This document shows positions 52,490 through 53,707 of a DNA stretch of 64,000 nt, one piece after another. Under the pieces are notes generated by a model, which saw only the letters and a program-made list of their open reading frames with translations, had not been told where the DNA came from and ran no database searches. This DNA comes from Escherichia coli. Its GTDB lineage: Bacteria > Pseudomonadota > Gammaproteobacteria > Enterobacterales > Enterobacteriaceae. A program made the translations under genes and the position numbers. How positions within the stretch are numbered: position 1 is the stretch's first letter; every line of letters begins with the position of its first letter. The DNA is taken from assembly GCF_003334315.1 (NCBI RefSeq), contig NZ_QOWR01000001.1. One strand, given 5' to 3'.

Positions 52490-53707
52490 TTAAGATGATG
52501 AGGCGGCCTCAGGGACGTGTTCCGGAGGCCGTTTTTTTAATCGCCACGTCAGTAATAACGCGATTGCGACCAGTCCCGCCGCCGCCAGATAAATCACCGG
52601 TACGCCCGCCCAGCTCATCACCAGCCCAGCCAGTGGTCCAGTCACGCCAAGCGATAAATCCATAAATACGGTGTAAGTTGCCAGCGCCGCCCCCTGATTT
52701 TGCTGCGGAACCGCTTTTACCGCCACTACACCCAATGCCGGGAACACCAGCGAAAACCCGGCCCCCGCCAGTAAGACGCCGATTTTCGCCATCCACGGCA
52801 TAGTCGCCACGCCAACCAGTAGCAGGCCGATTATCTCAACGCTAAAGCAAATCATCGCTACGTTTAAGCCACCGATACGGTTAATGCCGTTAGGGAATAA
52901 CAAACGCGTACCGACAAACGCACAGCTAAACAGCGTCAGCGCGAAAGCCGCACCGTCCCAACCTTTAGCGTCATAAAACAGCGTGATAAAGGTGGCGATG
53001 ACGCCAAATCCGGCGGAAGCCAGTGCCAGCGCCATACCGTACAGCCAGACGCGCCCAAGCACCGCGCGAAACGGCAGCGGTTTGCCTTTACTGGCTTTTA
53101 CCGTCGGACGCGGGATCGCCAACAAAATGGCCACCAGCGCCACGCCCATAATGATTAACGCTAACGCCTGCAAGCCGCCCCAGTGATAAAACACGACGCC
53201 TAACGGCGCACCCATCGCCATCGCCCCGTAAGTGACAATGCCGTTCCACGAAATCACCCGCCCGATATGCAGCGAGCCAACCACGCCAACGCCCCATAGG
53301 GTCGATCCCGTTCCGGCAAAACTTTGCCCAATCCCAAGGATGACGCGCCCCAGGCAAAGTAATAACAGGCTGATGACAGGCAGACTGGCGGTTAATCCTG
53401 CCGTCAGATACCCCAGACCGCTCAAAAAGCAGCCGCATAAACCGAAGACGACAATCTTTTTGGGTCCCAGCGAATCGGCGTAACGTCCGGCATGAGGGCG
53501 GCTCAGCAAGGTGGCGAAATATTGCAGGCTGATAACCAATCCTGCCCAGAAGGCGCTAAAGCCCATCACATCATGGACATAGCCCGGTAATACAGCGAGC
53601 GGCAACCCGATGGTGAGGTAGCTGGCGAAGTTAAACATGACTATAGAGACAATGCGCAAATTCAGGCGCAATCCGTTTAGCGCGGGTTCGGCTACGGGTT
53701 CGGGCAT
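52490..53707 (-). CDS. yhhS: MFS-family transporter YhhS
   Basis: Track ORF trimmed to MPEPVAEPALNGLRLNLRIVSIVMF (ATG 53705-53707); 405 aa polytopic. Confidence 0.88.
   Translation of the reverse strand: MPEPVAEPALNGLRLNLRIVSIVMFNFASYLTIGLPLAVLPGYVHDVMGFSAFWAGLVISLQYFATLLSRPHAGRYADSLGPKKIVVFGLCGCFLSGLGYLTAGLTASLPVISLLLLCLGRVILGIGQSFAGTGSTLWGVGVVGSLHIGRVISWNGIVTYGAMAMGAPLGVVFYHWGGLQALALIIMGVALVAILLAIPRPTVKASKGKPLPFRAVLGRVWLYGMALALASAGFGVIATFITLFYDAKGWDGAAFALTLFSCAFVGTRLLFPNGINRIGGLNVAMICFSVEIIGLLLVGVATMPWMAKIGVLLAGAGFSLVFPALGVVAVKAVPQQNQGAALATYTVFMDLSLGVTGPLAGLVMSWAGVPVIYLAAAGLVAIALLLTWRLKKRPPEHVPEAASSS
52504..52538 (+). terminator. rho-independent terminator for dcrB, embedded in the 3' coding end of convergent yhhS
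   Basis: cggcctc-loop-gaggccg followed by TTTTTTT (52532-52538). Confidence 0.55.

Follow-up and report, generated by a model that had tools for sequence, protein, structure and literature searches.

A probable intrinsic terminator of dcrB encoded within the 3′ coding end of the convergent gene yhhS in Escherichia coli

The stop codons of the convergent E. coli genes dcrB and yhhS are separated by only three base pairs, an arrangement that raises the question of where dcrB transcription ends and, should its terminator lie within yhhS, whether the RNA structure or the YhhS protein dictates the sequence of the shared DNA. We addressed this question in a 64,000-nucleotide stretch of E. coli DNA (the window). 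Bases 51875-53800 of the window are 100% identical to the genome of E. coli CP53 and were found in each of the 5,426 complete genomes of the species, and K-12 is identical over 161 bases spanning the dcrB/yhhS junction. The gene order in RefSeq is zntA, tusA, yhhQ, dcrB (+), yhhS (-), yhhT and acpT. Window positions are converted to MG1655 coordinates by adding 3558026, and in that genome dcrB occupies 3609955-3610512 and yhhS 3610516-3611733. The convergent layout with its 3-bp spacer had been noted in a first-pass annotation made from the sequence, and the sequence, the open reading frame list, and the RefSeq annotations of the 100%-identical genome and of MG1655 all agree on it. The features discussed below are collected in Table 1.

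Table 1. Coordinates of features at the dcrB/yhhS junction, in window positions
Feature	Position	Strand	Description	Basis
TSS of monocistronic dcrB transcript	51890	+	MG1655 3609916	Published SMRT-Cappable-seq
dcrB CDS	51929-52486	+	185-aa lipoprotein, PF08786; stop TAA 52484-52486	ORF list, annotation
Rho-dependent region, centre	52040	-	MG1655 3610066; antisense to dcrB; Rho score 3.2	Adams 2021, PMC7815308
Stop-to-stop spacer	52487-52489		3 bp, GTT; convergent dcrB/yhhS	Sequence, annotation
yhhS CDS	52490-53707	-	405-aa MFS transporter; stop (TAA on minus strand) 52490-52492	ORF list, annotation
Final 16 sense codons of yhhS	52493-52540	-	L390 KKRPPEHVPEAASSS405; terminator complement inside	Translation, codon reading
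Terminator hairpin, dcrB 3′ UTR	52504-52531	+	7-bp outer stem, 1x1 mismatch, 4-bp inner stem, 4-nt loop	Fold, covariation
T7 (U-tract)	52532-52538	+	Abuts last stem base 52531; mapped RNA 3′ end 52538	Sequence, published TTS
Bicyclomycin-sensitive (Rho-dependent) region, centre	52768	+	MG1655 3610794; antisense to yhhS; Rho score 7.2	Adams 2021, PMC7815308

Several features of the surrounding DNA were recorded alongside the junction. Upstream of the dcrB transcription start site the motif TGaTAAGAT at 51876-51884 resembles an extended -10 element and, as read from the sequence, may be the dcrB promoter. The annotated start of yhhS (window 53707-53749) differs among E. coli genomes, being placed to give 1218 nt (405 aa) in K-12 and CP53 and 1251 nt in several strains; the longest yhhS frame in the window begins at 53749 (419 aa). 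The zntA-tusA spacer (window 50640-50705) contains a GC-rich imperfect palindrome, gatcggtcccctcgctcctctggggagagggttagggtgagggg, which resembles the boxC-type enterobacterial intergenic repeats and may be one of them, and from which a spurious open reading frame containing PLTLTLSPEERGD arises.

The dcrB hairpin begins 17 nt past the dcrB stop codon. Its outer stem is formed by CGGCCTC (52504-52510) paired with GAGGCCG (52525-52531), followed inward by a 1x1 A/G mismatch at 52511/52524 and by an inner stem in which GGGA (52512-52515) pairs with TTCC (52520-52523) around the loop CGTG (52516-52519); eight of the pairs in the 7-bp and 4-bp stems are G-C. The predicted fold of the RNA from 52500 to 52539 has a free energy of -21.5 kcal/mol (z = -3.85), a stability reached by 0 of 200 shuffled sequences, and the hairpin with its flanks folds at -24.3 kcal/mol (z = -4.0). 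The combination of stem and T-run occurs a single time in the 64-kb window against an expectation of 0.03, and this single occurrence rules out a REP-type repeat. Scanning 51800-52800 against Rfam at E <= 1 returned zero family matches, which indicates that the hairpin does not correspond to any known sRNA or structured RNA family. A simple terminator scan also failed to report the hairpin, but this is not a real negative because the internal mismatch makes the apparent loop exceed the loop limit of the scan. The element thus combines a stable GC-rich stem-loop, an abutting U-tract and a position 3′ of the stop codon of a co-oriented gene, as is characteristic of an intrinsic terminator.

When the same DNA is read codon by codon on the opposite strand, T7 supplies Lys391-Lys392 and the final base of the Leu390 codon, the 3′ arm of the hairpin encodes Arg393-Pro394-Pro395, and the 5′ arm encodes Glu400-Ala401-Ala402. 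Hairpin and T-run span yhhS codons 390-402, and the terminator therefore falls entirely within the last 16 codons of the gene. This reading establishes the earlier proposal that the hairpin and T-run of dcrB are located inside the final yhhS codons, although the interval given there, 52493-52538, runs from the last yhhS sense codon to the end of the T-run and is broader than the structured core at 52504-52538.

Published mapping of RNA ends places the 3′ end of dcrB transcripts at this element in vivo. SMRT-Cappable-seq detected a forward primary transcript running from a TSS at 3609916 to a TTS at 3610564 and containing only b3472 (dcrB), both in M9 and in rich medium (Yan 2018, PMC6131387). 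After coordinate conversion the TTS corresponds to window position 52538, the last T of the run, and the mapped transcript has a 3′ UTR of 52 nt. The site was marked in that study as novel relative to RegulonDB. In M9, 12 reads end at 3610564 and five pass through with a median extension of 101 nt, and in rich medium 23 end and two pass through (Yan 2018, PMC6131387); the corresponding share of molecules reaching 52538 that stop there is ~71% and ~92%, values that derive from few ending reads (12 and 23) and from a method that cannot tell termination from 3′ trimming to a stable hairpin. Mapping of 3′ ends, the check proposed in the first-pass annotation, accordingly finds the end where the hairpin and T-run predict it. 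The outcome that was named there as counting against the terminator, dcrB transcripts extending well beyond 52540, is encountered only in a minority of reads (5 of 17 in M9 and 2 of 25 in rich medium), the majority ending at 52538. For comparison, read-through of at least 5% was found at 75% of all TTSs in the same study (Yan 2018, PMC6131387).

The curated Term-seq lists of Adams 2021 (PMC7815308), which cover three conditions, contain zero 3′ ends at the dcrB hairpin, an absence that may reflect the thresholds applied to peaks. The same study reports a reproducible 3′ end at window 51966 (+) (MG1655 3609992) in two growth conditions; this end falls 37 nt inside the dcrB open reading frame, within the signal-peptide codons, and has a Rho score of ~0.5 and an intrinsic-terminator score of ~1 (Adams 2021, PMC7815308). 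It may stem from pausing, processing or attenuation. A search of the TERMITe supplements gave zero matches for the dcrB 3′ end, and a search of the literature for an in vitro termination assay of the dcrB site found none. A natural variant of the site is present in E. coli E07 (L003:1580-1660, approximately window 52531-52540), in which the 3′ arm of the hairpin is followed directly by an IS1 element in place of the T-run; the annotated yhhS of this strain continues into the end of IS1, giving an altered YhhS tail and a naturally terminator-less dcrB.

Transcription on both strands appears to be limited by Rho beyond the hairpin. On the dcrB strand the bicyclomycin-sensitive region lies ~230 nt downstream of the hairpin, with read counts at 3610794 (+) of 171/16 in untreated cells and 183/124 with bicyclomycin (Adams 2021, PMC7815308). 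The ~8-fold rise in plus-strand signal 3′ of the hairpin upon bicyclomycin treatment (Adams 2021, PMC7815308) implies either that termination at the hairpin is incomplete or that other antisense transcripts exist in this region; since the Rho scores are calculated over 800-nt windows, they cannot localize where untreated coverage drops or judge the end at 3610564 itself. The minority of reads that pass 52538, taken together with the downstream Rho-dependent region, argue that the dcrB terminator is real but leaky, and the region around 52768 probably acts as a backup for dcrB read-through. On the opposite strand, transcription of yhhS probably ends at the Rho-dependent region centred on 52040.

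The Rho-dependent region downstream of the hairpin also bears on a different account of the mapped 3′ end. According to this account 52538 is a processing end: Rho terminates transcription downstream, and 3′-to-5′ exonucleases trim the RNA back to the protective hairpin. Rho-terminated RNAs are typically trimmed by 3′-5′ exonucleases (Adams 2021, PMC7815308), the candidate region is on the same strand ~230 nt away with a Rho score of 7.2, and there is no listed Term-seq peak at 52538 (Adams 2021, PMC7815308). However, a perfect U7 tract abutting a GC-rich hairpin of 7 + 4 bp, with the RNA ending at the last U, is the signature of intrinsic termination, and T7 is near-invariant across genera although trimming protection alone would not need it. 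In rich medium, moreover, only 2 of 25 reads go past the site, and the 800-nt windows used for Rho scoring cannot place the drop in untreated coverage downstream of the hairpin. Processing is therefore an improbable source of the end at 52538, with a small residual chance, and we infer that the end arises from intrinsic termination rather than from trimming.

A second alternative is that one bidirectional terminator serves both dcrB and yhhS, as for many convergent pairs. Bidirectional terminators between convergent genes are reportedly common in E. coli. The dcrB hairpin is near-palindromic and folds on the minus strand as well (-16.8 kcal/mol, z = -3.8), and the can/hpt pair offers an example of a bidirectional terminator between convergent genes (Yan 2018, PMC6131387). 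In the minus-strand RNA, however, the hairpin is followed by CCUCAUCAUCUUAAAAC, without a U-tract, and correspondingly the sequence 5′ of the hairpin in the dcrB direction is GTTTTAAGATGATGAGG, which is not the A-tract expected of a bidirectional terminator. The hairpin is furthermore located upstream of the yhhS stop codon, where translating ribosomes would unwind it. The missing minus-strand U-tract and the position ahead of the stop together argue that the terminator is not bidirectional. The SMRT-Cappable-seq tables list no transcript for yhhS (b3473) (Yan 2018, PMC6131387), and the sole minus-strand feature is the Rho-dependent region ~450 nt further on, inside antisense dcrB. An element with the appearance of a bidirectional terminator is found instead in Kosakonia species (L057, L067, L068, L071 and L077), which lack the overlap between terminator and yhhS. 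In these genomes a separate terminator, composed of AAAAAGGGAACC, a loop and GGTTCCCTTTTTT and flanked by an A-run and a T-run, is situated ~+20 to +50 from the dcrB stop codon within a spacer of 45-100 bp, and these flanks make it look bidirectional. Kosakonia YhhS is ~11 residues shorter at its C-terminus (...WRLKQKPVLEG*) and is without the tail seen in E. coli. Taken together, a shared bidirectional terminator at the E. coli junction is very improbable.

Comparison across species provides evidence that the hairpin and T-run are maintained as an RNA structure. A DcrB alignment yielded 80 species-representative enterobacterial loci, in ~55 of which yhhS points towards dcrB and the two stop codons are 0-6 bp apart, while in one case the genes overlap by 7 bp. 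Most of the 80 loci contain a GGCCTCC...GGRGGCC hairpin with T7, the T-run starting at ~+46 from the dcrB stop, and the energies of the hairpin family range from -14 to -28 kcal/mol. Two size classes are present, of 28 nt (12 bp, 4-nt loop) and 19 nt (8 bp, 3-nt loop), and the difference of 9 nt corresponds to exactly three codons. Covariation was tested for a structure of 12 pairs on 57 sequences from the 28-nt class, aligned without gaps. Paired cells amount to 94.6% in this alignment versus 84.0% in shuffles and 37-54% when the pairing partners are slid, eight of the 12 pairs vary on both sides, and the covariation score is 0.343 versus 0.130, with 0 of 500 shuffles reaching any of the measures. 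Six of the seven T7 columns show no variation, and conservation at the remaining one is at least 90%.

The closing pair of the hairpin illustrates how the structure is preserved while the protein changes. It is C-G in 36 sequences, U-A in 13, A-U in two and G-U in two; in the yhhS frame the same position yields Arg (CGG), Trp (TGG) or Arg (AGG), and the partner base is the first position of the codon following Glu-Ala, which specifies Ala/Val, Thr/Ile/Met or Ser. Matched changes in both codons thus keep the closing base pair through non-synonymous substitution on both sides, and over the 57-sequence alignment as a whole the terminator structure is retained by compensatory changes.

Within E. 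coli, polymorphism in the 161-bp stretch is concentrated at the apex of the hairpin, where the alleles GGGACGTGTTCC, GGTATTTCCACC and GGTGCTTCCACC alter YhhS residues 396-398 with the outer stem and T7 kept. The K-12-type apex GGGACGTGTTCC (52511-52524) differs at seven of ten positions from the GGTGCTTCCACC and GGTATTTCCACC alleles of other E. coli lineages and Escherichia species, the flanks of the alleles being at least 95% identical, and 713 of the 5,426 genomes are 90-95% identical over the 161-bp stretch. Inversion of one allele into another was checked as their origin and rejected. As far as sequence comparison can tell, the alleles look like paired indels that maintain both the hairpin length and the yhhS frame.

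If the DNA were conserved on account of YhhS, the hairpin would be expected to disappear where yhhS is missing, and in most such loci it does not. Three species of the Enterobacter cloacae group, Cedecea and Buttiauxella are without yhhS and have yhhT after dcrB, yet they retain the hairpin and T-run, and in Yokenella, where a different gene converges on dcrB, both are retained as well. When one Enterobacter locus bearing yhhS is aligned with three that lack the gene, homology extends through the hairpin and T7 and breaks directly after the T-run. Loci L041, L069, L078 and L085 also keep hairpin and T-run with no convergent yhhS found, L041 being a truncated contig. The Cedecea hairpin has a 1-nt indel in the loop, giving a 27-nt hairpin, a change unseen where the yhhS frame must be kept. 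The converging gene of Yokenella regensburgei (L058:3100-3115) is arnF-like, and its TAA stop codon overlaps the last bases of the T-run (TTTTTTTA), so that the terminator there is sandwiched exactly between the two stops and enters neither open reading frame. Retention of the hairpin without an intact yhhS is not universal, as the exception of Salmonella enterica subsp. arizonae CCUG 6322T (L056:3058-3830) makes clear. In this genome yhhS appears to be frameshifted into open reading frames of 213 and 151 aa, possibly through an error in the draft assembly. Two pairs of the hairpin are broken (CGCCC...GTCCG), its stability is ~-9 kcal/mol, and it is the only degraded-looking element among the loci.

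The conservation of the YhhS C-terminus mirrors that of the RNA. In an alignment of 55 orthologues, no 11-residue window of YhhS varies more than residues 395-405 (rank 1 of 395), where the mean entropy is 1.65 bits versus 0.37 bits at residues 20-387. Within the tail, residues K391, K392, R393, P394, P395, E400 and A401 are well conserved, and S403 and S404 moderately so; the well-conserved positions coincide exactly with the codons formed by the T-run and by both arms of the outer stem. Species differ in tail length by whole codons, and in one locus (L073) a 1-nt change frameshifts the tail to KKSPRLNNRRP*. Examination of YhhS tail conservation in orthologues, also suggested in the first-pass annotation, shows the tail to be the least conserved part of the protein, with its conserved residues tracking the stem and T-run. 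A variable tail in which only the residues specified by these elements are conserved indicates that the RNA element sets the protein tail and not the reverse. That the conservation instead represents a functional YhhS peptide motif (KK-R/W-PP...EA), with the hairpin and T-run as by-products of protein selection, is the least probable of the alternatives and scarcely credible: although K391, K392, P394, P395, E400 and A401 are well conserved and an inner-membrane transporter could plausibly carry a basic cluster past its last membrane helix, the sequence persists in genomes that lack yhhS, paired positions co-change non-synonymously (as when Arg becomes Trp and Ala/Val becomes Thr/Ile/Met), YhhS is most variable between the arms, where the number of residues also differs, and the tail is missing from Kosakonia YhhS and frameshifted in one species.

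In sum, the element is very probably a canonical, somewhat leaky intrinsic terminator of monocistronic dcrB that the yhhS frame crosses, with selection at the level of RNA dominating. RNA polymerase transcribing dcrB would continue into the 52-nt 3′ UTR, where the GC-rich hairpin (52504-52531) would fold in the nascent RNA as U7 (52532-52538) occupies the RNA-DNA hybrid, and most transcripts would be released ending at the last U, 52538. The minority that read through would be stopped by Rho within antisense yhhS, and transcription on the yhhS strand would cross the dcrB hairpin into antisense dcrB and likewise end by Rho. Because the two stops are only 3 bp apart, the complement of the terminator is translated in YhhS, where it would supply the last ~13 residues, including Lys-Lys, Arg-Pro-Pro and Glu-Ala-Ala. 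Selection would act mainly on the RNA structure, and the YhhS tail would be its tolerated and largely unconstrained translation. The compensatory changes, the survival of the hairpin in genomes without yhhS and the mapped 3′ end uphold the original suggestion that one piece of DNA is both the YhhS C-terminus and the dcrB terminator. A bolder extension of this model holds that the YhhS tail (~393-405) originated when the frame ran through a pre-existing dcrB terminator, the hairpin dictating the protein including its Arg/Trp switches, and that the near-abutting stops (0-6 bp in ~55 species) are kept for reciprocal, excludon-type control of dcrB and yhhS; we consider this extension unlikely, if less so than the alternatives above.

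The preferred reading, an intrinsic terminator overrun by yhhS, has practical consequences chiefly for annotation and strain construction. The dcrB gene is a self-contained transcription unit with its TSS at 51890 and 3′ end at 52538, and it would be a mistake to treat the C-terminal ~12 residues of YhhS as a functional motif. Any engineering at the 3′ end of yhhS, whether by tags, deletions or Keio-type replacements, will disturb dcrB termination, and vice versa. Beyond annotation the arrangement has little consequence, and it serves mainly as a teaching case of how RNA structure on one strand imposes a conservation pattern and non-synonymous co-substitutions on a protein encoded by the opposite strand. 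When the literature was searched for explicit earlier accounts of terminators embedded in the coding end of a convergent gene, nothing specific emerged; judging from general knowledge and from the literature on excludons and bidirectional terminators, the dcrB/yhhS arrangement nevertheless belongs to a well-known and routine kind of gene-end overlap. A public dataset already contains the dcrB 3′ end, and only the comparative detail is new, and unsurprising.

The relationship of the dcrB element to known systems can be summarized by what it shares with each and where it departs. Like other E. coli intrinsic terminators it has a GC-rich stem-loop and a 7-U tract soon after the stop codon, a 3′ end in the U-tract and partial read-through; it differs in lying wholly in the coding end of a convergent gene, with a 3-bp spacer, and not in intergenic DNA. 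With bidirectional terminators such as can/hpt (Yan 2018) it has in common a single palindromic hairpin between convergent genes, but its U-tract is on one side only, serving the dcrB direction, and the partner strand relies on Rho. The pair also belongs with convergent excludons. By RNA-seq coverage dcrB-yhhS is among 165 convergent excludons of MG1655 and is present as such in at least 50% of 58 transcriptomes (ExcludonFinder, PMC12288877), and both this listing and the 52-nt dcrB 3′ UTR inside yhhS, fully complementary to the yhhS coding 3′ end, document overlapping transcripts. With a 3-bp spacer and a 3′ UTR of this length the overlap is unavoidable, and because the spacer would make any 3′ UTR overlap, the listing may lack regulatory meaning. 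Signs of reciprocal regulation, mutually exclusive expression or RNase III processing were looked for at dcrB-yhhS and not found. Finally, the locus resembles dual-use DNA, in which RNA structure is embedded in coding sequence, insofar as the conservation pattern of YhhS mirrors the stems and U-tract. Here, in contrast, the two functions reside on opposite strands and in separate transcripts, and the constraint from YhhS appears minimal, so that dcrB/yhhS is better described as an open reading frame that extends across a terminator than as true dual coding.
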